Source: a phage. Taken from it: DNA of 64,000 nt. Position 1 is the first letter of the stretch. Every line of letters starts with the position of its first letter. Below are positions 1,610 to 53,276 of the stretch, piece by piece. The notes beneath the pieces are model-generated. The model was not told where the DNA came from and ran no database searches. It worked only from the letters and a program-made list of their open reading frames with translations. The stretch is from sequence record OZ346167.1. One strand, given 5' to 3'. The position numbers were made by a program, and so were the translations under genes.

Positions 1610-3085
1610 GTGAGAAGAATGGCAGATATTACAGAAACACAAGAAAGCTTACCACCATTTAGAATGGGTGAAGTAGGTTCTTTGGGTCTGAAGGTTAAGA
1701 ATGGAAGAATCTATGAAGAACCTCGTCAGGCACTAAGGTTCCCTGAAAGTATTAAAACTTTCCAATTAATGATGCGTGACCCTGCTGTAGCAGCATCTGT
1801 AAATATTATTAAGATGTTTGTCAGAAAAGTCAACTGGAGATTCGTACCTCCAAAGGGAAAAGAGCAAGACCCTAAAATGCTTGAAAGAGCAGACTTCTTT
1901 AATTCTTTAATGGATGACATGGAGCATGATTGGGCAGATTTTATTAATTCTGTAATGTCATTCTGCACTTATGGGTTCTGTGTTAACGAGAAAGTTTATA
2001 AGAAGCGACAGGGTAAAAAAGGAAAGTACCAGTCAAAATTTGATGATGGTCTAATTGGATGGGCTAAATTACCAATCAGAAACCAATCAACACTTGATAA
2101 GTGGTATTTTGACGAAGACTTTAGAAAAGTTACTGGTGTTAGACAGAATCTGAGAAATGTTTCACATATTGCTGGAGCAATTAATCTCGGAGAAAGGCCA
2201 CTAACAAGAAAACTTCCACGAGCTAAATTCATGCTGTTTAAGTATGATGATGAATATGGAAACCCAGAAGGTCGTTCACCATTACTTAATGCCTATGTAC
2301 CGTGGAAGTATAAAGTTCAGATTGAAGAGTACGAAGCCGTTGGTGTTTCAAGAGACTTGGTAGGTATGCCAAAGATTGGTTTACCACCAGATTATCTGGA
2401 TGAAAATGCAGAACCTGAAAAAAAAGCTTTCGTACAATACTGCAAAACTGTTGTTAACGATATGATTGCTAATGATAGAGCAGGTTTAATCTGGCCTAGA
2501 TATATCGACCCAGATACTAAAGAGGATATTTTCGAGTTCTCATTAGTTTCTAGACAGGGTGCTAAAGCATACGATACAGGTTCTATTATTGACAGATATT
2601 CCAAGCAGATTATGATGGCATTTATGTCAGATGTTCTTGCTATGGGTCAGTCAAAATATGGTTCATTCTCTCTTGCAGATTCTAAGACAAGCTTACTAGC
2701 AATGTCGGTAGATATCCTGCTGAAGCAAATTAAGAATGTAATTAACCGTGATTTAGTTGCACAGACTTATGCTCTTAATATGTGGGACGATGAAGAACAT
2801 GTACAAATCACTTATGATGATATCGAAACTCCAGACCTTGAAGCAATTGGTTCTTATATCCAGAAGACTGTTGCAGTAGGTGCTTTGGAAGTTGACAAAG
2901 AGCTATCTAACAAACTTAGAGAGCATATTGGTCTTCCTCCTGCTGATGAGTCTCAGCCAGTATCTGAAAAGCTTTCTCCAAATAGCCAAAGCCGTTCAGG
3001 AGATGGTTATAAGACCGCTGGAGAAGGTACTGCAAAGACACCTTCAGCGAAAGACCCAAGCACAGCAAATAAGGCAAATAAATAA
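1610..3085 (+). CDS. portal protein
   Basis: 491-aa ORF directly after terminase and before protease/capsid genes; call by gene order and size only. Confidence 0.6.
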   Translation: MRRMADITETQESLPPFRMGEVGSLGLKVKNGRIYEEPRQALRFPESIKTFQLMMRDPAVAASVNIIKMFVRKVNWRFVPPKGKEQDPKMLERADFFNSLMDDMEHDWADFINSVMSFCTYGFCVNEKVYKKRQGKKGKYQSKFDDGLIGWAKLPIRNQSTLDKWYFDEDFRKVTGVRQNLRNVSHIAGAINLGERPLTRKLPRAKFMLFKYDDEYGNPEGRSPLLNAYVPWKYKVQIEEYEAVGVSRDLVGMPKIGLPPDYLDENAEPEKKAFVQYCKTVVNDMIANDRAGLIWPRYIDPDTKEDIFEFSLVSRQGAKAYDTGSIIDRYSKQIMMAFMSDVLAMGQSKYGSFSLADSKTSLLAMSVDILLKQIKNVINRDLVAQTYALNMWDDEEHVQITYDDIETPDLEAIGSYIQKTVAVGALEVDKELSNKLREHIGLPPADESQPVSEKLSPNSQSRSGDGYKTAGEGTAKTPSAKDPSTANKANK

Positions 3086-3585
3086 TGGCTGAAGTTATCT
3101 CTATTTCAAATGCTACACGAGTGCATTCGTATAGGGGTGTTCTTATCATTACTGACAAATTATCTGTAGAGGTTGGCTCAAGGGTCAGCCTTTCAGGTTA
3201 TGTTAGTGATGGTGGAATCTCTGACGTTTTCACTATTTGCAGGTTACTTGATGCACCAATGAGTGGAAAACCGTTTATTTCAGGAAATTGTAGTGAAATT
3301 GTTAAAATTCCATTTGACAGTTCATGCCTTTTGGGTGTAAAGTTATATAACTGCGAGAATAAACGTATCAATGTTAATAGCATTGAAGCCGCTTTCATTA
3401 CCCTCGATACTGCATTTCAATCTCCAATGACAGTTAATAAAGAAACAAACAGACTTGAATACATTTTTTCACAAAATGATTACAAAGTACTTGTCAAAGG
3501 TAAAGTATATGATATGATTGTAAATGTGGTAGATGAATCTGGTAACCATTCAACAGTCCTTAAACAAAAAGTAAGGTTTAATTAA
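3085..3585 (+). CDS. hypothetical head-module protein
   Basis: 166-aa ORF, start overlaps portal stop (translational coupling); no recognisable motif. Confidence 0.4.
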   Translation: MAEVISISNATRVHSYRGVLIITDKLSVEVGSRVSLSGYVSDGGISDVFTICRLLDAPMSGKPFISGNCSEIVKIPFDSSCLLGVKLYNCENKRINVNSIEAAFITLDTAFQSPMTVNKETNRLEYIFSQNDYKVLVKGKVYDMIVNVVDESGNHSTVLKQKVRFN

Positions 3586-3917
3586 TGGGAACATTAACTA
3601 TTGATGGTAAGAATAAAATCCTCGCCACGCTAACCCCAACGACTATTATTTTACACAATGTAGACCCAACGGCAGACCCTACAGCAAATAAGGTTACTCA
3701 GCCAGTGGCTATTTATTTTTCTGAACCGGATAATGGCTTAATTGCCTCAGAAGACACAGTTAATATTACTGTCCCAGCTTCTGCAACGGTCTCACACTAT
3801 AGCTTGTGGGATGCTAACGATAAATGCGTGGCAACTGGTGCTCTTAGCAAACCTCAATTCTTTGCTGAAGAAGGTATCTATGTTATCTCTTCAGTCTCTG
3901 TAGATTTAAACAAATAG
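3585..3917 (+). CDS. hypothetical protein
   Basis: 110-aa ORF tightly packed in head module. Confidence 0.4.
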   Translation: MGTLTIDGKNKILATLTPTTIILHNVDPTADPTANKVTQPVAIYFSEPDNGLIASEDTVNITVPASATVSHYSLWDANDKCVATGALSKPQFFAEEGIYVISSVSVDLNK

Positions 3918-3928
3918 GGTGAGTAAAA

Positions 3929-5275
3929 ATGAGTTCGAATATCTTCAGACTTGCTGATAGATTATTCAACCAACCTTTACTAGCCACTGAATCATTAGCT
4001 CACTCAGCAGCAACTTATGTGAATAACAGATTGCTGGGTGATGTCCAAGCAGCAGTAAACTTTGATAAACCTAAAGGTGAAGCAAGAAGTCTTTTAAAAG
4101 TAAAAGATGATATTGCTATTATCCCTATTATGGGTGGCTTAACCCATCGTATGACATTCATTGATGCAATGTGCACAGGTGGTTTAAGTTCTTATGAAGG
4201 TTTACGCAGAGTCTTTGACGAAGCTTTAGCAGATGAGTCAATTAAGACTATTGTTCTGCACATTGATTCTGGTGGTGGTGAAGCTTCAGGTTGCTTTGAA
4301 TTAGCACGTCACATTATGGCTTCAAGAGGCCAAAAGAAAATTATTGCTTATGTAGATGAGTTCGCTTGTTCCGCTGCATATGCTCTTGCATCTTCTGCTG
4401 AAGAAATTATTGCATCACCAGATGCAGATGTTGGTTCTATTGGTGTAATCATGGTTCATCAGGAATTAACTAAGGCATTTGAAAAGAATGGCGTAACAAT
4501 TAACGTCATCAAAGCTGGTGAGTTTAAAGGTATGGGTTCACCATTCCAAGCACTTTCAGAAGAAAGCAAAGAAAGACTTCAAAAGAGAATTAATGATACC
4601 TACGCAACCTTTACAGGTTTTGTAGCTGAATCTCGTAATCTCTCTGAAGAAGCTGTAAAGAATACTGAGGCGAATGTTTATTCTGCTCAGGAAGCTCTTG
4701 AACTTGGTTTAATTAACTCAATCATGTCTCAAGATGATTTCTTAAATTACTTACAAGGTTCTGAAGAGGCTCCTGTAAGTTTAAACGTTAACAATTCAGG
4801 TGAAGAAATGACTGAACAAGAAAAGCAAGAACTAGAAGCTTTGCGTCTTCAGGTTGCTCAAATGAAAGCTAAAGAACAGGAAGCTGCTTTGTCAGATTTG
4901 ACTAATAAGATTTCTGCTTCTGCTGAAGCTTTTGGATTTGATGCAAAAGAAGCTGCAACGACTATTTTAGGTGCTGGTCTTGATAACCCTCTGAGTGTTC
5001 TGTTTATGAATGCTATGGAAGGTGCTAACCAGAAACTTAATGAAACTATCGCGTCCCATGCTTCTGCAATGGAAGAAAAAGAATCAGAAATTACCAAGCT
5101 GAAAGAAACTGCTGGTGCTGTTCTTGAACATTCCAACGCTATGGAAGAAATGGGTAATGACGGCGAAGCTGATTTGGTTGAAGAAGAAAAAGAACCAGCT
5201 AAGAATGCTTCCGAAGACACCGCTGAACAACGCAAACTGGCTCTCCAGAATGCTCTAAAATCTCTTATCAAATAA
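3929..5275 (+). CDS. prohead protease (S49/ClpP-like) fused to scaffold-like coiled-coil region
   Basis: motif IHIDSGGGEASG typical of S49/ClpP-type serine peptidases; C-terminal third is charged, alanine/glutamate-rich (scaffold-like); lies between portal and capsid genes. Confidence 0.6.
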   Translation: MSSNIFRLADRLFNQPLLATESLAHSAATYVNNRLLGDVQAAVNFDKPKGEARSLLKVKDDIAIIPIMGGLTHRMTFIDAMCTGGLSSYEGLRRVFDEALADESIKTIVLHIDSGGGEASGCFELARHIMASRGQKKIIAYVDEFACSAAYALASSAEEIIASPDADVGSIGVIMVHQELTKAFEKNGVTINVIKAGEFKGMGSPFQALSEESKERLQKRINDTYATFTGFVAESRNLSEEAVKNTEANVYSAQEALELGLINSIMSQDDFLNYLQGSEEAPVSLNVNNSGEEMTEQEKQELEALRLQVAQMKAKEQEAALSDLTNKISASAEAFGFDAKEAATTILGAGLDNPLSVLFMNAMEGANQKLNETIASHASAMEEKESEITKLKETAGAVLEHSNAMEEMGNDGEADLVEEEKEPAKNASEDTAEQRKLALQNALKSLIK

Positions 5276-29978: not shown

Positions 29979-30545
29979 TCAAGATAGTTTTGCAAACTCT
30001 CCGTGGAGTTTAATAGCAGCTTCACAGTAAGCTTTATGGGCTTCTTCAGGTGTGTCATGGTAACCTAAAAACATCTTCTTACCTTTATAACTTATCTGTG
30101 CGACCCACTTACCAGACTTCTTCTTCAGGCTTACACCCTTATAGCCTGATTTATTGGTGGATAGTTTGCTTTTATTCCAAGCACTTTGGTAGTCATATGC
30201 TTCTCTTAAGTTTACAATCCTGTTATCAAGGGAGTCTCCATTAATATGGTCAATAACACCTTTCGGCAACCTACCATACATGTACAGCCATGCGAGTCTG
30301 TGTGCTTTATGTGCTTTCTTGTCAAAATAGATAGTAATCTGCTTATGACCAGTTGAGTCAATCTGGATGCTCCCCGCTACCTGTCCTGCGTACTGACTAT
30401 TAAAAACTTTAACAGCCTTTGAGTCGCCCTCTCTACGAAGCCAAGTAAAGACCCCTGTTTCGGGGTCATAGTGTAGTAGTTCCTTTAAACGTTCTTTTGT
30501 AATCATTTTGTCACCATTAATGCACTTCCAACCACGATTTACCAA
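29979..30545 (-). CDS. HNH homing endonuclease with AP2-type DNA-binding domain (free-standing)
   Basis: HNH core HRLAWLYMYG...IDHINGDSLDNRIVNLR; AP2-like GYKGVSLKKKSGKWVAQISYKGKKMFLGYHDTPEEAHKAY; overlaps 3' end of polymerase exon 2; paralog of 40353-40868. Confidence 0.8.
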   Translation of the reverse strand: MVNRGWKCINGDKMITKERLKELLHYDPETGVFTWLRREGDSKAVKVFNSQYAGQVAGSIQIDSTGHKQITIYFDKKAHKAHRLAWLYMYGRLPKGVIDHINGDSLDNRIVNLREAYDYQSAWNKSKLSTNKSGYKGVSLKKKSGKWVAQISYKGKKMFLGYHDTPEEAHKAYCEAAIKLHGEFAKLS

Positions 30546-31076
30546 CCTTTGCTGTACCAGTTACAAGTGTTTCTTTCCTCAAACCTAAGTTTTTTGAAGC
30601 TTGTCCATACATCCAGTCAGCAATTGCTTTCATATCATGTGTCATACCCTCTGGACATTCCCAACTATTTTCATCGTGATATGCCAGAAGTAACCTTGCT
30701 CCGATAGCTGGTTTTCGAGCATTCAGTTTTGTCAGGCCATCTTCACAGGCTTTTCTTGCTGCTAGGTTGATGGCCTCATTCTGAATCTGTGCTTCCGAAC
30801 TCATCAGGAGGTAGTTCAGTAGTTTATGTGGAGATTTGCACCATATCCATGCTCCAGCGACCCTGATATAACCACCTTTAGCAATTGAAGAATTCTTCCC
30901 AAAAACCTCTTCCAGAGCCTTTTTAGACGCCTTAAAATCGGCTTCTAAGCTATCAAGTAACTTCTTAATCTTTGGCAGACGCATATAGTAAGTTTGTTTA
31001 GTTAATGCACCTTCCTCTGTAGAAGCTGCCTTAATGGTTTTGGCAAACTTCTCATCACCTGCACCGAACAATACAT
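30517..31076 (-). CDS. DNA polymerase (family A, T7 gp5-like), exon 2 (C-terminal part)
   Basis: FGAGDEKF, SPHKLLNYLL, AYHDE (motif C) align with T7 DNA polymerase C-terminus; in-frame stop immediately upstream at 31081-31083; exact 5' boundary uncertain by a few nt. Confidence 0.8.
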
Positions 31077-31347
31077 CTGGTCAATACACTCGCAAGGTGT
31101 ACCAGTTCTCTTATGAACTTCTCCGCATTTCTACGGAGTGTCGGACTATATCACGTAGTAGTAATACTACCGTTGCACTTGGGAATGGTCATTGGCTTAC
31201 CACCCTACTCTACTCAGTTCATACGTTAAGTATGCTTTTCGATAGTCTCTGAACGTTCCTCTTAAGAGGCTTCGCTGCTGATTACCATATCTTTACAGAC
31301 TTAGGCTTCCAGCAATTCACAACGTTTTACATGCGCCACTGACGCAT
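31077..31347 (-). mobile_element. group I intron (ORF-less) in DNA polymerase motif B
   Basis: on the transcribed strand the conserved core elements P (AAUUGCUGGAAG), Q (AAUCAGCAGCG), R (GUUCAGAGACUA; + coords 31243-31252) and S (GAUAUAGUCC; 31143-31151) occur in canonical order; ends in G; splits polymerase motif B. Confidence 0.75.
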
Positions 31348-33514
31348 AAATGCCATTTTTGGCTTTCTTACGACCTTTTGTAATCTCGTGGAGAAGTTCC
31401 TCATCCTGTGTCTCCCTACAACGAACAATATCTTCTTCCTTGTTCAGACCAAAGTAAATACTGTTCAGTGTATGCGCATCAGTCCCTGTGTAGACTTCAT
31501 AGAGGTCGTTCTCAGCATCATAACGAAGATACTTGTCAGTTTCTGGATTAAGGTGCTTATCAAGATGTTTGCAATAATATCTCCCATCTTCTTGCTTGGT
31601 AAATTCTACTGACTCTTTACCTTCAGTTACTGCTTTAGTGAACTCTTTATCACCCATAAAGTTACACAGTAAAACAAGCTGTGCAGAGTTCTGGTCAACA
31701 GAAACAATGTTAGTCCCCTCTTCACAAATCCACACTGCCCTCATAGGTGCTCCATAGACAGCAGCACCAGACGGTACGTTTACAATACCATATTGTGTCA
31801 TACGTCCAGTTGAAGTACCAAACACCATTGCACCAGCACTAAGGCGACCATCAGGACGAATCTGGTTCAACCAACCTTTTTCATCATCCTTTGAGTTCTC
31901 AATAGTTCTGCGTCGGTGCATCAAAGTATAGTACTTAGCAATCTTCTGTCCAAGCTCACCTTCAATCGTATCATAAGATGATTCAGTAAGTTTTGGTGAA
32001 GTACGGATTAAGCAAGGCTCAAGCAAGTCTGTGTATTTCTTCACAGACCAGTTATGCTCAATGTACTGTACACCTTCATGTTCAACATAACTCAAACCAC
32101 ACCGCTCAACCATTTCCTGCCACTTAGGATGCTTTGTAATCATCTTTTTATTGTCTTTGAAACGACAAACTTTGACAGGGCGACCATCTGAGTCTTTCTT
32201 GTAATTCCAGTCATCTGGAATCCAACCAACTGATTTCAAGTAGTCTTTAACAACTGCTACCTGAGTCATACGAGAAACTTCAAACTCAATTGGTGTATAT
32301 GGTGCATCAATCAAACCTGTGTAGCGACTTGACTCAAGTTCAAAGTGATTAACAACGTGGCTGTTATAGTACTTCACAGTTTTGACTGTTTTTACTGGCT
32401 TCCAGTCTTTGCATTTCTTACCAATCTTTGCGTTCAACTCATTGCAAATTGCACGAGCATCCTTCATTGCTACAAATCCCTCTTTGTACTCTTCACCAGT
32501 TACAGAGTTGGTTGGTGTATAGCAATTTCTCTTTTCAATGTTAAAAATCTTTGTAGTTGGCTTACCAAATGGCTTGATTTCATATGTCTGCATCTCACCG
32601 TTACGTACCTGCTGACGATACTTTGTCTTAGGGTACTTGGTAATCCTCTTCAGCCCATCTGCATGACCGAATGCTTCAACATATTCATTCCAAGCTTTTG
32701 CAAACTCTTCTCCAGTAACTTTACCTTTGGTCTTAATAGTTGGAGGAAGATGTGGTTCAACCTCTGAAGCAAGCTCATTAGTCAACTTGTCAAGTTCCTT
32801 TACATGGAACTCCATAAGCTCTTTATCAGCTTTCCAACCATTGATAGCTTGCTGGCTCATCCAGAAAGATGTTTCTTTAGCTCGCATGTAGGTTTCATAA
32901 GTGTCTATGCCACACTTCTTAAGCTTGAGATACTCGTTATCAAGTGCCCGTTTAGTTTTGGCGTTAATACGGATATCTTCTACGACACGAGTGAAGATTT
33001 CTGCATTCCACACACCCCAATGCTCAATCTCTGGCTTACGAACACCAACACGAGCACCCCATGCAGCCAAACCATGAGCACCTTTATAACCCTTTGGAGT
33101 TGGCCTATCCATCCACTGAACACGAGACTGGATAAGAGAATCCTGAAAGAAATTACCCCACGGCTTACATTTTGGATTATCAAAGTTCCATAAATCAGGT
33201 GCAATGTGATTGAAAACCCACCAGTCATAACCGAGACCATTATGGATGCAAAGACGTTTTGCCTTTAACGCAAATTCAACACCTTCACGTAAACCACCTT
33301 TGATGTACTTAGTGTACTTGTGACCGAGGATAGGCTCATCTGTAAAGACCCATACAGGTGGCTCTTCATCGTCAGATTTATAGTCTGCAAAGGCCATTAC
33401 GTGAACTTTAGTGAACTCAAGGAGTAAACCATCAGTTTCTGTATCACCAACCAAATGTAAGTTTTTAAAATCTACGTTTTCCATTTTTACTCCCTCTAAA
33501 ATCATTAACCTCAT
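31348..33514 (-). CDS. DNA polymerase (family A, T7 gp5-like), exon 1 (3'-5' exonuclease and most of polymerase domain)
   Basis: motif A-like IVSVDQNSAQL and start of motif B RKKAKNGIY; continuous ORF ends in a stop 16 codons into the intron. Confidence 0.8.
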
Positions 33515-38432: not shown

Positions 38433-39290
38433 ATGTCTAAAGTTGTTAAAATGAAAGCTCCGGTAGAGAAGTACAACGGTACTGAACGTCAAACTCTGCG
38501 TTACCTACTGAAAGATGTCTGGTTTTATTACCTGAACACTTCACCACGTCCGGGAAAAGGTAAGTCTATTGATAAGAAATTCCCAGGAAAAGATTGTAAC
38601 TACAGCGTATCAATTCTGGCAGAAGACGGTAACAAACTGTTTAAAGAGTTTACTAAGTCTAAGAAAAATCCAGAAGGCTGGGATAAAGTTACTACTGAAG
38701 CAGTTGATGCAGATGACTTCGAAGAGAAGTTTGGTTGTAAACCACCTTTTGAAGCAGACACTTACTACATCTTGAAAGTAAGTCGTGCAGCAGCTTATAA
38801 AGATGGTGCTGTATGGACAGCTAAACAGTCATTCCCTGTAATGCTGATTGAAGAAGTAAATGGTAAGCGTGTAGCTGTTAAGCAGCCGATGAAGAAAATC
38901 AAAGCTCAAGCATCTGATAAACATGAAGATGACAAGAACTATGATGTAATTCATCCAGATATTGCAGTTGGCAACGGTTCTTTTGGTAGTGTGATTCTTT
39001 CTACTCACTTCTACACTTTTGAGAACAATGTTCTGACAAAACCTATTCAGGAACAGTTTATCATTGACACTCTTGTACCTTACACTGGTGGTAACGGTGC
39101 TAATGGTGAGCCTGAACTGGATGAAGATGAACTGGCTATGCTTGGTCTTGACGGTGTTGAAGATAACGGTGAAATCACTGAAGAAGACGCAACAGACCAT
39201 AAATCTTCGAATGATTCTGATGATGGTGATGATGAAGATTTGCCAGACCCAGATGACGAAGAAGATGAAGACTTCGATACAGAAGATTAA
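38433..39290 (+). CDS. single-stranded DNA-binding protein candidate (acidic C-terminal tail)
   Basis: 285 aa, strongly acidic C-terminus (DDGDDEDLPDPDDEEDEDFDTED) as in T7 gp2.5/T4 gp32; sits between primase-helicase and exonuclease. Confidence 0.5.
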   Translation: MSKVVKMKAPVEKYNGTERQTLRYLLKDVWFYYLNTSPRPGKGKSIDKKFPGKDCNYSVSILAEDGNKLFKEFTKSKKNPEGWDKVTTEAVDADDFEEKFGCKPPFEADTYYILKVSRAAAYKDGAVWTAKQSFPVMLIEEVNGKRVAVKQPMKKIKAQASDKHEDDKNYDVIHPDIAVGNGSFGSVILSTHFYTFENNVLTKPIQEQFIIDTLVPYTGGNGANGEPELDEDELAMLGLDGVEDNGEITEEDATDHKSSNDSDDGDDEDLPDPDDEEDEDFDTED

Positions 39291-39317
39291 TCTCTAAAAG
39301 TTACTTTAAAGCCCTGT

Positions 39318-39350
39318 ACTCAGTATGGGGCTTTTTCATATGGAGAGCCA
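39318..39350 (+). terminator. rho-independent terminator candidate
   Basis: imperfect GCCCTGTACT/AGTATGGGGC stem followed by TTTTTC. Confidence 0.4.
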
Positions 39351-39352
39351 TA

Positions 39353-40399
39353 ATGGAGAAGTACACATTAACAAAACTTCCCGATTCAGTTACACATGTC
39401 TTTATTGACTCTGACAGTATTGCCTATAAAGGTGCTTGTGTAGTTGAGAAAGCAAAGTATAAATATGTCAATAAACTCACAGCAGAAGAGTCTGAGCCAT
39501 TTGATAATGCGAAAGATGCCGCAAGATGGTTAGCAGACCAGAGAATCTTTGTGGAAGAGCTTGGTCTGACATTTGATGAAGATGAATGGGAAAGACAGAC
39601 TTGGAAAGAAGCTAAGAGTGAAAAAGAAGCTATCATGGCTACTCAACAGGTTCTTCAGGAATGGCTTAAGTTTGTTGGTAAAGATAGAACTTGGGTGGGT
39701 TATTTAACAGAGAAAGGTGTGCATAAACATAAAGACATTAAAGGTCTTGAGCACCAATATCAAGGTAACCGCAAAGATGCTGTCACACCAACACACTTAG
39801 TTGCTTGTCGTGAATATCTTTTATCCAGACCAGAGTTCAAACTCTTAAGGGGTGGCTTCGAAGCCGATTCAATCGTAATTGCTAAAGCTGAAAAGATGGG
39901 TAAGAAAGCTGCTCTTATGAGTATTGACAAAGACCTTCGACAAGCTGAAGGTACTTACTGCATTGATATGACCTATGAAAAATCACCTTTAATTTTTATT
40001 GCTGATAACAACGTTGGTGAAATTTGGGATTGCCCAATAAAATCAACACCGAAAGCTAAGAAGACAGTTGGGGTAGGTTTTAAATTTCTTTGTTATCAAG
40101 CTGTGGCTGGTGATAATGCAGATAACTATTTTGGTTTAAAGGGCGTTGGTAAGGTTGCTGTAATGAAAGCCCTTGAAGGTAAAACTACTTACAAAGAGTG
40201 TCTTGATGCAATCTATGAACTTTATGCTAAGAAAGAGTCCTACACTTATGTCTCGTGGGATGGTCAAACAATTACCAGAACACCTTTAGAACTAATGCAG
40301 CAACACTTCTTCTTAGCTTATCAGGAAAGAAATAAGAAAGACGATTTTACTTTTGATAAGTATGGGTGGACACCAAATGTTAACTCAACAAACTCTTAA
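39353..40399 (+). CDS. 5'-3' exonuclease / flap endonuclease
   Basis: helix-3-turn-helix signature AVAGDNADNYFGLKGVGKVAV matching the GDxxDNxxG-GxG FEN family motif. Confidence 0.7.
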   Translation: MEKYTLTKLPDSVTHVFIDSDSIAYKGACVVEKAKYKYVNKLTAEESEPFDNAKDAARWLADQRIFVEELGLTFDEDEWERQTWKEAKSEKEAIMATQQVLQEWLKFVGKDRTWVGYLTEKGVHKHKDIKGLEHQYQGNRKDAVTPTHLVACREYLLSRPEFKLLRGGFEADSIVIAKAEKMGKKAALMSIDKDLRQAEGTYCIDMTYEKSPLIFIADNNVGEIWDCPIKSTPKAKKTVGVGFKFLCYQAVAGDNADNYFGLKGVGKVAVMKALEGKTTYKECLDAIYELYAKKESYTYVSWDGQTITRTPLELMQQHFFLAYQERNKKDDFTFDKYGWTPNVNSTNS

Positions 40400-40868
40400 A
40401 GAGTACCTACATTATGACCCCGAAACAGGGGTCTTTACTTGGATTAAGAAATCTGCTAGACACACAAAAATTGGCTCTGTTGCAGGTACAAACTTAAGAG
40501 GGTATACCAGAATTTATTTGTTTGGTAAGGGCTATTATGCACATACCCTAGCCGTTCTGTATATGGATGGATACCTACCTGAGTGTGTTGACCATAAAAA
40601 TCATGTAACACTAGACAATCGCTGGGTAAATCTTAGGGCATGTACGTTATCAGAGAACCAATGTAATAGGTTGCTCAATAAGAACAATAAATCAGGTGTT
40701 AAAGGTGTGTACTACAAAAAACAGTATGGTAAGTGGTCTACACAGATAACTTTTAAGAAAAGGGTCTACTTCTTCGGCAACTATGACACTATTGATGAAG
40801 CAGCAGAGGTTGTAAATAGGGAACGTCAACGTTTACACAAAGAGTTTGCTAATAAAGGTGATGAATGA
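40353..40868 (+). CDS. HNH homing endonuclease with AP2-type domain (free-standing)
   Basis: shares LHYDPETGVFTW, HNH core and AP2-like GVKGVYYKKQYGKWSTQITFKKRVYFFGNY with the 29979-30545 protein; overlaps exonuclease 3' end. Confidence 0.8.
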   Translation: MISMGGHQMLTQQTLKEYLHYDPETGVFTWIKKSARHTKIGSVAGTNLRGYTRIYLFGKGYYAHTLAVLYMDGYLPECVDHKNHVTLDNRWVNLRACTLSENQCNRLLNKNNKSGVKGVYYKKQYGKWSTQITFKKRVYFFGNYDTIDEAAEVVNRERQRLHKEFANKGDE

Positions 40869-41365
40869 GAAAAATAAAAGGTTTTGGCAATTGCCCTGAA
40901 TATGGACATTGGGTTTCACTATGTGGTGAAGTTGACCCAGCAAAGCACTTTGGTTTTGTCTACCTAGTGTACTGCAAAAAGACTGGACAGTACTATTTGG
41001 GTAAGAAACAGCTTAACAGTGTGACCAAAAGAAAAGTTGCTGGGAAGACTCGGAAGAAGATAGTCACTAAGGAAAGTGATTGGATGACTTATGAGACTTC
41101 TTCTGAGTATATTAAAAAAGATATTGAGAGTTTTGGAAAAGAATTTTTTGACTTTTACATTATTCAGACCTACTACACAAAAGGTGGCCTAGTCTATGGT
41201 GAAGCAAACCTTCAACATAAATTCGATGTAATGACAAAAAGGATTGACTCTAAGCTCAGACTCTTCTACAATGCCAATATTGCAGCAATTAAGTTTATCA
41301 CTAAAGAAACTTATGAAGATGCTGAAAAAAGAATCCATAAGGTAATGAAAGCAAATTATGCTTGA
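40865..41365 (+). CDS. GIY-YIG-like endonuclease candidate
   Basis: FGFVYLVYCKKTGQYYLGKKQ resembles the GIY-(9-11 aa)-YIG motif; immediately downstream of the HNH gene. Confidence 0.4.
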   Translation: MRKIKGFGNCPEYGHWVSLCGEVDPAKHFGFVYLVYCKKTGQYYLGKKQLNSVTKRKVAGKTRKKIVTKESDWMTYETSSEYIKKDIESFGKEFFDFYIIQTYYTKGGLVYGEANLQHKFDVMTKRIDSKLRLFYNANIAAIKFITKETYEDAEKRIHKVMKANYA

Positions 41366-41371
41366 TAACTA

Positions 41372-41635
41372 TTGAGAGAGAATAAAATGTTTAACAAAAG
41401 TAAAGCTGTGAGTCATGTAGCAAAAGTTGACAGCAAGATTGAAGAACTTGAGCGCATCCTTGCAAATGCTAGAGAGTCAATAATTAAAGAAGTTGAAGCT
41501 GTTGAGTCTCAAATGCAGCACCTAATGCTTAAACGTCAAGAGCTACGTGAACATCTAGAATATATTGAAACACGAGAGCTAAAGGTTAACAAATATTTTA
41601 AGGAGTCCGAATGTTTAACTCAAGAGAATCAGTAA
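41372..41635 (+). CDS. hypothetical coiled-coil protein
   Basis: 87-aa ORF. Confidence 0.3.
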   Translation: MRENKMFNKSKAVSHVAKVDSKIEELERILANARESIIKEVEAVESQMQHLMLKRQELREHLEYIETRELKVNKYFKESECLTQENQ

Positions 41636-42366
41636 AAAACTGGAACCTTCGTTGTGGAAACACTCAAAAGCAACCTTACAGTGATGAGTATTGGGAATCT
41701 TTAAAATCTCAATCTCTGTGTATGCTTGAAGAAGCAAAAGAGCTTGTAAAAGCAATTGAAGAGAAAGACCCCATTGAGACACTGGATGCTCAGGCAGATT
41801 TGCAATATGTTCTTGACGGCTTGATTTATCTGTCACAACATGACCATAACGGTGCTATGAAAGCTGTTTGCCGTAATAATGACCTGAAGTACACAGATGA
41901 CTATGAAGAAGCTTTAAAACGTCTTGCAGACATTGAAAAGCGTACTGGTCAAGAGTGTATTATCAGAATGTCAGTAGTTGATGGTAAAGAGTGGTATGCG
42001 ATTGTTCGTGCAGCCGATGGGAAGATTATGAAGCAATCAAATCTCCCTAAAGTACAGCTTGGTGAATACATTGTAGAACTTGAAAGCCAAGAACTTTTTG
42101 TGGTAGTATCTGAGACATGCGTTATCTGCAAAGGTATTGTAGGTAGCTTAAAGGATTTGGGTGTAGATGGTTTTGTAGAAGTTAATCCAATTACCTCTAA
42201 AGCAGATAAAGACTTCTGTAAAGAGAATGGACTATGGATTGCAGATATTGTCTATTATGATGGTGAGCAGTTCCATGTAACCTCATACCCGAAACTGAAT
42301 TATGATGCTAATAACCTGAAGTGCTGGTTAAAAGGGGTTGGTTATAATGGATTCACAGAACATTAA
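41611..42366 (+). CDS. hypothetical protein
   Basis: 251-aa ORF. Confidence 0.35.
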   Translation: MFNSRESVKNWNLRCGNTQKQPYSDEYWESLKSQSLCMLEEAKELVKAIEEKDPIETLDAQADLQYVLDGLIYLSQHDHNGAMKAVCRNNDLKYTDDYEEALKRLADIEKRTGQECIIRMSVVDGKEWYAIVRAADGKIMKQSNLPKVQLGEYIVELESQELFVVVSETCVICKGIVGSLKDLGVDGFVEVNPITSKADKDFCKENGLWIADIVYYDGEQFHVTSYPKLNYDANNLKCWLKGVGYNGFTEH

Positions 42367-42670
42367 TAAAGAGGGTGTGGCTCAGAAGAGCCACTTCTCA
42401 AACTACAACATTTCTATGACGGTGTTTATGAATGACCCGTTACTTGAAAAGTATGGTGAGACTCCAGATACACTTCTGGATAATGAACAAGTTTTAAAAG
42501 CAGTCCTGTACAAATATGGGATTGATATTGAGAAAGAGTATTCCTTTGAAATCTGCCAACACAGGAACACTTTCGGTAAAGTTGTGATGGCTCCACTCTT
42601 TATGGGTGTAGAAAGGACTGACTATGGTTGGTTGTATCTAAAAAGAAACTTGGAGAAATACCGTGTCTAA
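42338..42670 (+). CDS. hypothetical protein
   Basis: 110-aa ORF. Confidence 0.3.
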   Translation: MVIMDSQNINKEGVAQKSHFSNYNISMTVFMNDPLLEKYGETPDTLLDNEQVLKAVLYKYGIDIEKEYSFEICQHRNTFGKVVMAPLFMGVERTDYGWLYLKRNLEKYRV

Positions 42671-42998
42671 AGCAAAAAAGCTATCTTATGATGACATCAT
42701 CTCAGGTGCTAAGTTAGGTGTTGACAGTATCGGACAAGATATCAAGCACGGAGACACAGTTATGTACTGTGATGACCGAAGAGGCAGAAGTGCAATCTTG
42801 TTTGGAAGAATTGTTTGCAAGATGAGAGGTAATTACGTTGTTGCAGACATGGATGTGAACGTTACACAAAAACTTGAAACGATTATGGGTGATAATACAC
42901 CGTCATGGCTCCTGAATTGTATGCACACTTCTTCAGTCACAAAAGTAAGTGATAAGTTTTACGATATGTGGCAGAATGAGCAAATTTTCAAGATTTAA
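42663..42998 (+). CDS. hypothetical protein
   Basis: 111-aa ORF followed by terminator. Confidence 0.3.
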   Translation: MSKAKKLSYDDIISGAKLGVDSIGQDIKHGDTVMYCDDRRGRSAILFGRIVCKMRGNYVVADMDVNVTQKLETIMGDNTPSWLLNCMHTSSVTKVSDKFYDMWQNEQIFKI

Positions 42999-47151: not shown

Positions 47152-48348
47152 ATGAACAAAGTACAGATTATTAAAAAGAACGGCTCACTTGAAGAACCTG
47201 ATATCAAAAAAGTTTTAGCAGCAGTCACAAAGTCAGCTAATAGGGTTGGGTATAAAGAACTCCCACCAGATGTTACCCAAGCTCTTGAGTCAGCATTTAT
47301 GAGGATTCTGGTAAAATCCACTAAGCAGAATAATTTACTCATTTCAGTAAATGATATTCACAGTATTGTTGAGGGTGCTTTGGCAGAAGTCAATCACGAG
47401 ATTTATGAGTCTTACTCAACATATAGAAATTACCGTAAAGAAGTTGCTCAAAATTGGGATGAACTCTACCAGAAGACCAAAGATACACTCTTCTTAGGTG
47501 ACAGAGAGAATGCTAACTTTGACAGCAGTTTAATTTCTACAAAAGGTTCAATTATTCGTGGTTATCTGACTAAAGAAATCTTTAAACAGTACCATTTAAC
47601 ACCAGAGGAACTTGAAGCCATTGAAAAAGGGTTTATCTATATCCATGATTTAAGAGACCTAATTTTTGGTGGTATCAACTGTTGCCTGTTTGACATTGGT
47701 AAAGTCCTGAAAGGCGGCTTTGAAATGTCTGGCATCGAATATTGTGAACCAAAGTCTGTACTGTCGGCCTTACAGGTTATTGGTGACGTAGTTCTTTCAG
47801 CAACTGCACAGCAATTTGGTGGTTTTACTTTAGCAGAGATTGATAAGGTACTTGTACCGTATGCTAAGAAGTCTCTACGCTATCATGCTGAGAAAGCAGC
47901 ATCTTATGGTATTCCTAAAGAACATTACCACAATTATGTCATGGAGCAGCTACAGATTGAACTGACTCAAGGTTTCCAGTCACTTGAAATGAAGCTAAAT
48001 ACTGTACCTTGTAGTCGTGGGGATTTTGCATTCACAACTTTGACATTCGGGTTACTTGACTCAGATATGTCCAATGAAGATAACCGACTGCAATATATGA
48101 TTGCAAGTACTCTCCTAGATGTTCGTATGAATGGACAAGGTAAGAGCAAGAAGCCTGTTGTATTCCCTAAACTGGTTTATATCTATGACCAGAAGAGACA
48201 CGATGAGAATATCTGTCAAGGACACCTGTACAGTAAAGCCATTGAGTGTTGCTCTAAAGCAATGTATCCAGATTTCTTAAGTGTATCTGGTCATGGTGCT
48301 GTAGCAGAAGCTTTTGAGCGTTCTGGCAAGGTAATTTCGCCGATGGGT
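47152..48348 (+). CDS. nrdD: anaerobic ribonucleotide reductase (class III), exon 1
   Basis: ATP-cone-like N-terminus; ORF ends ...KVISPMG then stop at 48349-48351, exactly where exon 2 resumes with CRAFLSPY. Confidence 0.8.
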
Positions 48349-49090
48349 TAACAGGCTCTATAGCTCATCTAAAACGTGCCTAAACAGGGAAACTCTACAG
48401 GTGTAGACAATCCTGTGCTAAATGATGTACGATGTAAGAAACTATACAATATAGGAGTCTTACATGCCAAACTATCACGTCACTGAAGATGGAAAAGTCT
48501 TTAGGGAAAATGGTGTAGAGCTTACGCAGTGGAAATCCAACACTGGGTATATGAAAGTGAGGTTTTACGGTAAGAAGAATCGTGACATGTATGTCCACAG
48601 GTTAGTTGCTGAGAAATATGTACCTAACCCGAATAATCTTCCAATTGTAAAACATAAGGACGATAACAAACTAAATAACCACGCATCTAACTTAGAATGG
48701 GGTACTCATTCTGAGAATGCTAAAGAGGGTTATGAGAACGGATGTTACAAGTTCCACAAGCGTTCATATGCCGTGAAAGCCACACACAAAGTGACAAAGG
48801 AAGTTATTGTTACTAAGTCAATACGAGAGTTGTCCAATATACTTGGACACAATCGCAAGACCATCTCTTCAATATTGAAGGGTGTAAAAGAGCATAATAA
48901 CTTCGAATATGAGTTTGAATACATCTAAATGCCGAACGACTAACCGTGATGAATGTAGCGGTGTAGGGTCAAGCGACTCGAAATGGTACGCTACTTAGAA
49001 ATAAGTAGAAGATATAGTCTGGACTTACTGGCGACAGTAAGCAGCTTGAATAAAGCGGGGTAAGCTTAGCGAACTTACCTGAACAACAAG
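48349..49090 (+). mobile_element. group I intron in nrdD carrying an HNH endonuclease ORF
   Basis: follows exon-terminal U, ends in G; P4-like pairing CCUAAACAGGG / AAUCCUGUG; R-like GAACGACUAA (48934-48943) and S-like AAGAUAUAGUC (49010-49019); internal ORF 48464-48928. Confidence 0.75.
48464..48928 (+). CDS. intron-encoded HNH homing endonuclease
   Basis: HNH core HRLVAEKYVPNPNNLPIVKHKDDNKLNNHASNLEW; located inside the nrdD intron. Confidence 0.75.
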   Translation: MPNYHVTEDGKVFRENGVELTQWKSNTGYMKVRFYGKKNRDMYVHRLVAEKYVPNPNNLPIVKHKDDNKLNNHASNLEWGTHSENAKEGYENGCYKFHKRSYAVKATHKVTKEVIVTKSIRELSNILGHNRKTISSILKGVKEHNNFEYEFEYI

Positions 49091-50038
49091 TGTAGAGCGT
49101 TTTTATCACCATACCATAACGAATATGGTGAAGAGTTTTATGTAGGTCGTGCTAACATTGGTGCTGTATCTTTGAACTTACCAATGATTTACCAGTATTC
49201 TAAAGAGAATGGCTTAGATTTCTGGAAAGAGCTTGATAAGTACCTAGAAATGATTCGCAGCTTCCACAAGAAACGTTACGAAATGATTGCTAATATGCCA
49301 GCAAGTTCTAACCCTCTTGCATTCACACAGGGTGGTCTGTACAAAGGGAATAAGAAACCTACTGACAAGGTTGGCTGGGATATCGTGAAGTCCTTCACAG
49401 CTTCTTTTGGGGTTACTGCGCTTGATGAGCTATCTGTTCTTGCTGAAGGTAAACGACTTCATGAAGTTGGAAGCTGTAGTTTTGCATATGATGTTCTGGA
49501 ATATATCAACATGAAGACTGAAGAGTTTAAAAATGAAGATGGCTTCTTATATGCAGTCTATGGCACTCCAGCAGAATCACTTTGTGGAACTCAGCTAAAA
49601 CAGTTCAGAGATATGTTTGGCGTTATCAAAGGCGTTTCTGACAAGGAATACTTTACAAACAGTTTCCATATGAATGTTGCAGCAGATATTACACCATTTG
49701 AGAAGCAGGACTTAGAAGAACCCTTCTTCCATATCTGTAGAGGCGGCAGAATCCAGTATGTAAGAGTGGCTAACCCAGAAAACTTATCAGCACTTAAGAG
49801 TTGTATTACAAGAGGGATGTTGAAAGGTTTCTATCAGGGACTTAACTTTGACTTAGCAATCTGTGAACATTGTGGTAACAGACCAAAGGCTGATGTTGAA
49901 GAATGTGAGGTTTGTCATTCACACGATATCTCTGTGATTAACAGGGTGTGCGGATATTTGGGATGGACTAAGATTAAAGGTGAATCCCGAATGAATGATG
50001 CAAAAATCGCTGAGATTCGTGACAGAATTTCTATGTAA
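49091..50038 (+). CDS. nrdD: anaerobic ribonucleotide reductase (class III), exon 2
   Basis: begins CRAFLSPY... and ends with glycyl-radical motif RVCGYLG; in-frame stop just upstream at 49088-49090. Confidence 0.8.
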   Translation, partial: CRAFLSPYHNEYGEEFYVGRANIGAVSLNLPMIYQYSKENGLDFWKELDKYLEMIRSFHKKRYEMIANMPASSNPLAFTQGGLYKGNKKPTDKVGWDIVKSFTASFGVTALDELSVLAEGKRLHEVGSCSFAYDVLEYINMKTEEFKNEDGFLYAVYGTPAESLCGTQLKQFRDMFGVIKGVSDKEYFTNSFHMNVAADITPFEKQDLEEPFFHICRGGRIQYVRVANPENLSALKSCITRGMLKGFYQGLNFDLAICEHCGNRPKADVEECEVCHSHDISVINRVCGYLGWTKIKGESRMNDAKIAEIRDRISM

Positions 50039-52760: not shown

Positions 52761-53276
52761 ATGTATCTATCAAACCTAAAACGTTCGGCTGCAATGTCAG
52801 TTCTAAGACTCAGCTTTGAGGAACGTCAAGAGTTCATTGATTCCCACCAATACGACCCTTCTAACTCCAATCACATGATTCTCTGGAATCGTGAGAGTTC
52901 CCGTGAAAGAGCATTATTCCGGTATTACCCACACTACACCGTAGATAACCTGTATGAATGTTTTGTTGTGAAGAACACCATTACAATACTCAATAAACTT
53001 TGCAGATACACAGGTAGTCAATCCTTCACATTAGGACACCACAAACCTGTTACAAAGGGTGGTGAGCATCACTGTGCAAACTGGTTTATCCAGACTAAAC
53101 TTGATAACCAGAAGCAAGGGGATAGTCTTTTAATTACCCCTAAGATGACCTACGAAGAGCAAGAGAAATATATCAAAAATAATATGCCAGATGTGCTTGA
53201 CAACAACTATACAGATTTGGCAATATCTCTCCTGTTGAAGTTCGAGACAGTTTATAGGGCAACTTATAATGGCTAA
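52761..53276 (+). CDS. HNH-motif nuclease candidate
   Basis: GHHKPVTKGGEHHCANWFIQTKLDN fits the HH..P...GG.....N HNH core. Confidence 0.4.
   Translation: MYLSNLKRSAAMSVLRLSFEERQEFIDSHQYDPSNSNHMILWNRESSRERALFRYYPHYTVDNLYECFVVKNTITILNKLCRYTGSQSFTLGHHKPVTKGGEHHCANWFIQTKLDNQKQGDSLLITPKMTYEEQEKYIKNNMPDVLDNNYTDLAISLLLKFETVYRATYNG

Follow-up and report, generated by a model that had tools for sequence, protein, structure and literature searches.

Nuclease genes between the exonuclease and MazG genes

The window analysed here is the whole 64,000-nucleotide stretch of phage DNA taken from sequence record OZ346167.1, and our subject is a 1-kb interval in it (40353-41365) in which an HNH-AP2 gene and a GIY-YIG gene follow a 5'-3' exonuclease gene. 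The original prediction, made from this DNA before any database search, took the two genes for free-standing homing endonuclease genes in tandem. Our analysis makes it likely that the interval instead combines two kinds of nuclease gene, a mobile HNH-AP2 homing cassette and a domesticated GIY-YIG core nuclease that is paired with the exonuclease. The window belongs to a Felixounavirus (Felix O1 type) of the subfamily Ounavirinae. A 4-kb stretch around the locus is matched by 259 phage records, the best of which are 96-98% identical and come from Salmonella and Escherichia Felixounavirus phages. Locally, the gene order is phrog_3877 (function unknown), exonuclease, HNH, GIY-YIG, a small conserved open reading frame (ORF), a MazG-like pyrophosphatase and the ribonucleotide reductase genes. 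Both tandem ORFs are present at the coordinates first given for them, and profile searches found HNH_3, AP2 and GIY-YIG (PF19835) domains in the tandem genes and in the HNH paralog next to the DNA polymerase gene. The coordinates are collected in Table 1.

Table 1. Positions of the nuclease genes and associated features in the window
Feature	Position	Strand	Remarks
5'-3' exonuclease gene (T7 gp6/FEN-like)	39353..40399	+	phrog_107 5.8e-66, weak PF01367; upstream flank of the HNH insertion
Inserted HNH cassette, 491 nt	40370..40860	+	borders aligned against the HNH-less alleles of BPS17W1, warpig and Sf19
Free-standing HNH(HNN)-AP2 homing endonuclease gene, allele type A	40377..40868	+	listed ORF begins at TTG 40353
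30-nt block TATGACCCCGAAACAGGGGTCTTTACTTGG	40413..40442; 30441-30470	+; -	identical in the 5' ends of both HNH-AP2 paralogs
SegE-family GIY-YIG core gene, nuclease domain only, 166 aa	40865..41365	+	start codon and HNH stop codon overlap in ATGA
Paralogous HNH-AP2 gene, intergenic cassette	29979..30506	-	listed ORF starts at TTG 30545
Group I intron without ORF, 268 nt	31076..31343	-	Rfam RF00028, 64.2 bits at 31121-31404; 268-nt gap in Moogle and FGS030
Third HNH_3 gene, no AP2 domain	48464..48928	+	between the nrdD halves

The HNH cassette and its borders

Homology places the start of the HNH gene at ATG 40377 (MLTQQ...) and not at the TTG of the listed ORF. The protein matches Pfam HNH_3 (PF13392, 1.2e-11) and phrog_99 (7e-69), with a sub-threshold AP2 match (4.3e-4). 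Its catalytic residues D72, H73, N85 and N97 are invariant in 64 HNH homologs, both window copies included. An AlphaFold model built from the 64-sequence alignment reached a predicted local distance difference test score (pLDDT) of 96. Searches of PDB sequences with the HNH and GIY-YIG proteins gave nothing meaningful, and the folds were compared instead. In its predicted structure the nuclease part of the HNH protein folds as in characterised HNH homing enzymes, and the AP2 domain lies at its C-terminus.

Alignment with HNH-less alleles shows that the cassette takes the place of 9 nt (GAGCCTTGT). Its left border is the exonuclease Trp codon at 40367-40369, and its right border is ATGAATGA, which begins the GIY-YIG gene region. 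The last 10 exonuclease codons, after this Trp codon, come from the 5' end of the cassette; the exonuclease C-terminus reads ...KKYNW-EPCMNED in HNH-less relatives and ...DKYGW-TPNVNSTNS in the window and other occupied alleles, the hyphen marking the border. Every HNH allele is inserted at this same point, directly after the Trp codon near the exonuclease end. The HNH allele of Shigella phage vB_SflM_004 (SflM004; 1978-2484) is otherwise the allele of Citrobacter phage Moogle, with a 3' end that runs into the ancestral exonuclease tail (...EPCMNED). Because this allele still reads into the ancestral tail, the right insertion border could be pinned down.

The HNH genes had been described as overlapping the 3' ends of replication genes at both of their loci. 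At the exonuclease locus this is correct, with an overlap of 23 nt when the gene starts at ATG 40377, but at the polymerase locus an overlap exists only with the TTG start.

Distribution and movement of the HNH cassette

A 1466-nt query (exonuclease 3' end, HNH and GIY-YIG genes) matched 298 records, 86 of them over at least 80% of its length. In an even sample of 60 records, the junction was occupied by an HNH gene in 19 and empty in 36. The match spans 981 nt in empty alleles as against 1466 nt in occupied ones, and in the empty state the exonuclease stop codon overlaps the GIY-YIG start. Allele-specific searches counted 21 records of type A (the allele of the window), 41 of type B (Felix O1), 21-23 of type C (wV8) and 6 of type D/E (Moogle). 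Thus the junction is occupied by an HNH gene in about 89 of the 298 related records and empty in about 70%. Records under the names of Campylobacter phage A126 and Staphylococcus phage SA1 also contain Felix O1-like sequence at these loci, probably because of contamination or mislabelling.

At least four highly divergent HNH alleles use this one site. Between them the proportion of nonsynonymous differences (pN) is about 0.29 with saturated synonymous sites, compared with about 0.02 in the surrounding genes. The cassettes of SflM004 and Moogle are 100% identical apart from the 3' end, whereas their flanks are only about 80% identical; the SflM004 flanks are 94-100% identical to the window. Among phages of Citrobacter, Shigella and Salmonella, copies of the type D cassette as a whole share 99.7-100% identity. 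The SflM004/Moogle comparison, which we regard as the decisive result for mobility, shows a recent horizontal transfer of the cassette alone.

The flanks of the junction are mosaic in several phages. In wV8 and SflM004, about 300 nt of the exonuclease 3' sequence are divergent or foreign. The first 105 nt or so of the GIY-YIG gene occur as two haplotypes about 22% apart, whose differences are almost all synonymous, and in warpig, a phage with an empty junction, recombination has left a breakpoint in this region. The records closest to the window in the GIY-YIG gene are carriers of HNH type A or B. Since a distant lineage (Logan SRR31860690 contig, 1999-4043), with 57% identity in the GIY-YIG protein, likewise carries an HNH_3 gene between its exonuclease and GIY-YIG genes, the junction appears to be a recurrent homing site.

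These comparisons bear out the prediction that the HNH-AP2 gene and its paralog are free-standing homing endonuclease genes, in that both are optional cassettes, precisely inserted beside replication genes and sporadic among close relatives; at the exonuclease locus, relatives free of the insertion show the HNH gene to be polymorphic for presence and absence. An obligate pair of HNH and GIY-YIG proteins was also considered and ruled out, as about 70% of the genomes carry the GIY-YIG gene without the HNH gene. The HNH part of the interval is ordinary, is already annotated, and confirms expectation.

A 30-nt block shared by the HNH paralogs

The 5' ends of the two HNH-AP2 paralogs share an identical 30-nt block that encodes YDPETGVFTW with GC-rich rare codons in a genome of 39% GC. 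Even the divergent HNH alleles at the exonuclease junction keep the block almost unchanged, whereas the rest of these genes is saturated at synonymous sites. It contains a hairpin of 6 bp (GACCCC-GAAACA-GGGGTC, 40416-40433; z-score about -2.8 for 46 nt) with a T-rich tail behind it, and this is the only terminator-like site in 39200-42700. The hairpin was considered as a general RNA or DNA element of the HNH family and rejected: among 86 distinct 30-mers in IMG/VR that encode YDPETGVFTW, 6 form the stem, where 4.2 are expected. Other low-GC phages use AT-rich codons for the same peptide. The exact block is therefore peculiar to the Felix-like lineage and not family-wide. Gene conversion between the paralogs, a regulatory hairpin or a binding site of the AP2 domain are possible causes.

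The conserved GC-rich palindromic block could also be taken as a sign that the HNH-AP2 proteins serve the phage. Possible roles would be that of a cofactor in packaging, on the model of HK97 gp74, or of an AP2-type regulator. Domestication is on record for HNH proteins built in a similar way (PMC10448857), and bioinformatics alone cannot show homing. We nevertheless regard such a role as highly improbable, given that some 70% of the close relatives lack the gene, that alleles as divergent as those described above can take its place and that it moved between genera as an exact cassette. Moreover, it does not lie near the terminase gene.

Conservation of the GIY-YIG gene

The motif quoted in the original prediction, VYLVYCKKTGQYYLGKK, corresponds to residues 32-48 of the GIY-YIG protein. 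The only Pfam match of this protein is PF19835 (SegE_GIY-YIG, 1.1e-26). Residues Y33, Y44, K48, E113 and N136 are invariant among its homologs, also across those that are 30-60% identical. The AlphaFold model, from a 69-sequence alignment, has a pLDDT of 95, and the chain ends one helix after the catalytic domain; the closest fold match is I-TevI. Public records label the gene "NAD synthetase" or "GIY-YIG homing endonuclease". The first label, found in many GenBank records and in phrog_447, is rejected by the Pfam match to PF19835 alone and by the GIY-YIG fold.

A word-indexed homolog search with the protein gave 10 matches, and an exhaustive search gave 1297 family representatives. These fall into two length classes. 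The long homologs (230-360 aa) carry NUMOD3/PF07460 repeats, which are typical of the DNA-binding regions of Seg enzymes and I-TevI, and the short ones (130-180 aa) consist of the catalytic domain only. The window protein, with 166 aa, is of the short class, and no NUMOD or helix-turn-helix (HTH) DNA-binding tail of the Seg enzymes was found in it.

A search with the GIY-YIG gene alone also returned 298 records, and their breakdown by organism is that obtained with the query that includes the exonuclease 3' end. In all 298 the gene lies directly after the exonuclease gene, the HNH cassette aside, and no GIY-less allele was found among these relatives holding the locus. The synteny extends over Felixounavirus, Mooglevirus, phiSUSP1-type phages, Erwinia Kolesnikvirus and a Hafnia phage. 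Three metagenomic relatives with 47-57% GIY-YIG protein identity, among them the SRR31860690 contig, keep the order exonuclease to GIY-YIG. Against Mooglevirus, the ratio of nonsynonymous to synonymous substitution rates (dN/dS) of the gene is 0.03-0.05 at saturated dS, which equals that of the exonuclease and is lower than that of MazG. Against the Erwinia phage, pN is 0.27 for GIY-YIG, 0.32 for the exonuclease and 0.43 for MazG. The purifying selection on the gene matches that on its essential neighbors.

Because the gene has the same position in all relatives, a homing reading fails for it; what stands of the earlier assignment is the GIY-YIG domain with its conserved residues. From its distribution, we conclude that the gene is a core gene of Ounavirinae and currently not mobile. 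Its conservation suggests that the protein is probably a working, catalytically active nuclease.

The gene might alternatively be kept for signals that serve its neighbors, such as translational coupling or an internal promoter, with a protein that has no role. Overlapping start and stop codons do tie the exonuclease, HNH and GIY-YIG genes together, a promoter-like site lies within the GIY-YIG gene (41244-41272), and promoters embedded in the seg genes of T4 favor seg retention (PMC2988022). However, purifying selection acts over the whole length of the protein, its catalytic residues do not vary even in remote homologs, and promoter-like matches are not in excess (11 as against 9.2 expected from shuffled sequence). 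We consider this explanation very unlikely.

Exonuclease genes upstream of the GIY-YIG gene in other phages

The assemblies around 12 short GIY-YIG relatives were looked up. A FEN-type 5'-3' exonuclease gene lies upstream in two of them, and a gene for a Cas4-domain exonuclease in four, twice with a 4-nt overlap and twice with one small ORF between. An SbcD/SbcC pair lies upstream in another, and two contexts have no exonuclease gene. A motif-based scan of IMG/VR then yielded 79 GIY-YIG loci, in which ORFs were called and searched with hidden Markov models (HMMs) built from the exonucleases of the looked-up assemblies. An exonuclease gene was found upstream on the same strand in 56 of the 68 scorable non-Ounavirinae loci; counted by GIY-YIG clusters at 90% identity, 26 of 34 have one. 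The exonuclease is of the Cas4-domain type in 45 of the 56 loci, of FEN type in 9 and of SbcC type in 2. In 41 of the 45 Cas4 cases, its stop codon abuts or overlaps the GIY-YIG start.

Three exonuclease families without homology to one another cannot have a homing target sequence in common, so that the pairing points either to a partnership in function or to a slot conserved in replication modules, in which the exonuclease was swapped and the GIY-YIG gene kept. Under either reading the GIY-YIG gene would be a retained, working gene. As a tentative proposal, to which we give somewhat less than even chances, the GIY-YIG protein may be the endonuclease half of a widespread two-gene endonuclease/exonuclease phage module. 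It would derive from a Seg-type catalytic domain, its partner would be interchangeable (FEN/T7-gp6-like, Cas4-like or SbcCD-like), and in Ounavirinae the junction of the two genes would have been invaded repeatedly by HNH genes. As far as could be determined, no prior description of such an endonuclease/exonuclease module was found in the literature, and the exonuclease-linked GIY-YIG module is modestly new.

These data also bear on the view, held by the original prediction and by several GenBank annotations, that both genes of the interval are active selfish homing endonucleases in tandem, the GIY-YIG gene having merely become fixed. That Pfam family PF19835 is named after the T4 homing enzyme SegE, that I-TevI has the closest fold, and that some members of the family adjoin ribonucleotide reductase genes, which are typical homing targets, speak for it. 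Yet the GIY-YIG gene is universal and syntenic in the 298 records from several genera and encodes no DNA-binding module. Its low dN/dS and invariant catalytic residues are not what is expected of a fixed selfish gene, which would decay when there are no empty targets. Sequence-specific homing also cannot explain why the family stands beside three non-homologous exonuclease families. We therefore judge this view unlikely.

A model for the two nuclease genes

Under the reading that we prefer, a mobile HNH cassette next to a domesticated GIY-YIG nuclease, the cassette sits exactly in the junction between the exonuclease gene and the next gene, rewriting the last exonuclease codons. It preserves translational coupling on both sides, through the 23-nt overlap upstream and the ATGA downstream. 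In a mixed infection, the HNH enzyme would nick or cut the exonuclease/GIY-YIG junction of genomes that have no cassette or have another allele. Recombinational repair would then copy the cassette in together with short flanking tracts, as in intronless homing. The 5' part of the GIY-YIG gene and the exonuclease tail are candidates for the region that is cut.

The GIY-YIG protein, a Seg-type catalytic domain that has no targeting domain, is probably a domesticated endonuclease. It might make nicks or breaks, or cut branched DNA, on which the partner exonuclease would then act. Such a pair could serve the breakdown of host DNA for nucleotide salvage or the processing of recombination or replication intermediates.

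Several points weigh against this model. Its homing mechanism is read from patterns of distribution. The link with exonucleases could be an inherited gene order of related replication modules and not a partnership, and 12 of the 68 scorable loci have other neighbors, among them genes for ribonucleotide reductase, a porin-like protein, NifU and nucleoside deoxyribosyltransferase. In Escherichia phage EC6 (2466-2967), the GIY-YIG gene is annotated as two separate ORFs, and the exonuclease gene is cut short at the 5' end; the cause may be frameshifts from sequencing errors, or else this is a rare disrupted copy, which might mean that the gene is dispensable.

The HNH junction is a clean natural example that offers empty, occupied and allele-swapped states together with a dated-looking transfer from one genus to another. 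Homing experiments could make use of it, and it would help to keep recombinant regions out of phylogenies. The GIY-YIG result corrects the record for hundreds of genomes in which the gene is labelled "NAD synthetase" or "homing endonuclease". Should the pairing with exonucleases be functional, the two genes would make up a nuclease module common among phages, and a selfish nuclease domain would once more have been recruited to serve a phage.

The polymerase locus and other HNH genes in the window

An HMM scan of all ORFs in the window found two HNH-AP2 genes, one more HNH gene inside nrdD and one GIY-YIG gene. Four to five endonuclease genes had been expected in the 64 kb; four genes with nuclease domains are confirmed, and the fifth was dropped as described below. 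The HNH-AP2 gene near the polymerase gene is indeed a paralog of that at the exonuclease junction, with 42% identity over 177 aa (E 4e-40), and has HNH_3 (2e-15) and AP2 (3.5e-12) domains. By homology its start is most likely ATG 30506, 10 nt past the stop codon of the DNA polymerase gene. TGACAA repeats bound the cassette, which Moogle lacks and FGS030 has, and which is sporadic among relatives. The gene is a second copy of the mobile HNH-AP2 type of element.

About 560 nt upstream of this cassette, the group I intron splits the family A DNA polymerase gene between KNGIYA and LLFGAG into exon 1 (reaching 33514) and exon 2 (31075-30517). Intron and paralog are both sporadic: some records carry the two together, some the HNH gene without the intron and some neither, and intron-only records are not clearly documented. 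Collaborative or trans homing, with free-standing endonucleases beside endonuclease-less introns, has been described (PMC2988022), and by analogy the polymerase intron and the nearby HNH gene could be such a case. Moogle and FGS030 lack the intron, and Felix O1 was reported to have no introns.

The anaerobic ribonucleotide reductase gene nrdD (47152-50038, + strand) is split into 47152-48351 and 49172-50038, with the third HNH_3 gene between the halves. The gene had been predicted to be intron-borne, and it probably is. The group I intron matches at nrdD, 33 bits at 48861-49041 and 15 bits at 48384-48458, are below threshold. The conserved ORF of 171 aa at 52761-53276 (+ strand), proposed as an HNH-like fifth endonuclease gene, has no Pfam HNH match. 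It belongs to phrog_3500 (function unknown) and matches one HNH phrog at E 4e-4; this marginal match was its sole support, and it was rejected.

Comparison with known systems

HNH-AP2 genes have been recognised as homing elements in other phages (PMC2248197, PMC10448857), and six HNH copies have been reported for Felix O1 (PMC3185647). The HNN-AP2 proteins of the Xanthomonas phages Xp10, Xop411 and OP1 (PMC2248197) and the IPA-HNH of ICP1 (PMC10448857) have the same HNH(HNN)-plus-AP2 architecture, with several dispersed free-standing copies per genome. In the Felix-like phages, by comparison, polymorphism for presence and absence and an exact cassette transfer between genera can be documented at one site. 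I-HmuI, the HNH nicking homing endonuclease of phage SPO1 (PDB 1u3e), is intron-encoded and has NUMOD/HTH modules, whereas the window HNH protein uses AP2.

In the intronless homing of the Seg and Mob enzymes of T4, the cut site lies in a neighboring gene and flanks are co-converted (PMC2988022). The HNH gene of the window resembles MobE, SegE, SegF and SegG of T4 in being a stand-alone gene between conserved DNA-metabolism genes, with a sporadic distribution and mosaic flanks (PMC2988022). It differs from them in its AP2 DNA-binding part and in the competition of at least four divergent alleles for one site.

The GIY-YIG protein shares the Pfam catalytic family PF19835 with SegE and other Seg-type enzymes, the long members of which carry NUMOD3 repeats. 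Unlike T4 SegE, it has no DNA-binding tail, and its gene is universal, strongly conserved and coupled to an exonuclease gene. It may also be compared with T4 endonuclease II (DenA), a small nuclease of the GIY-YIG type that lacks a targeting domain of its own and starts the breakdown of host DNA (PMC1564403, PMC2764454). Like it, the window GIY-YIG protein is small and consists of the nuclease domain, and it is encoded by a stable core gene under the purifying selection described above. In T7, the gp3 endonuclease and the gp6 exonuclease jointly degrade host DNA. The position of the GIY-YIG gene among exonuclease, MazG and ribonucleotide reductase genes is consistent with a likeness to this gp3/gp6 pair.

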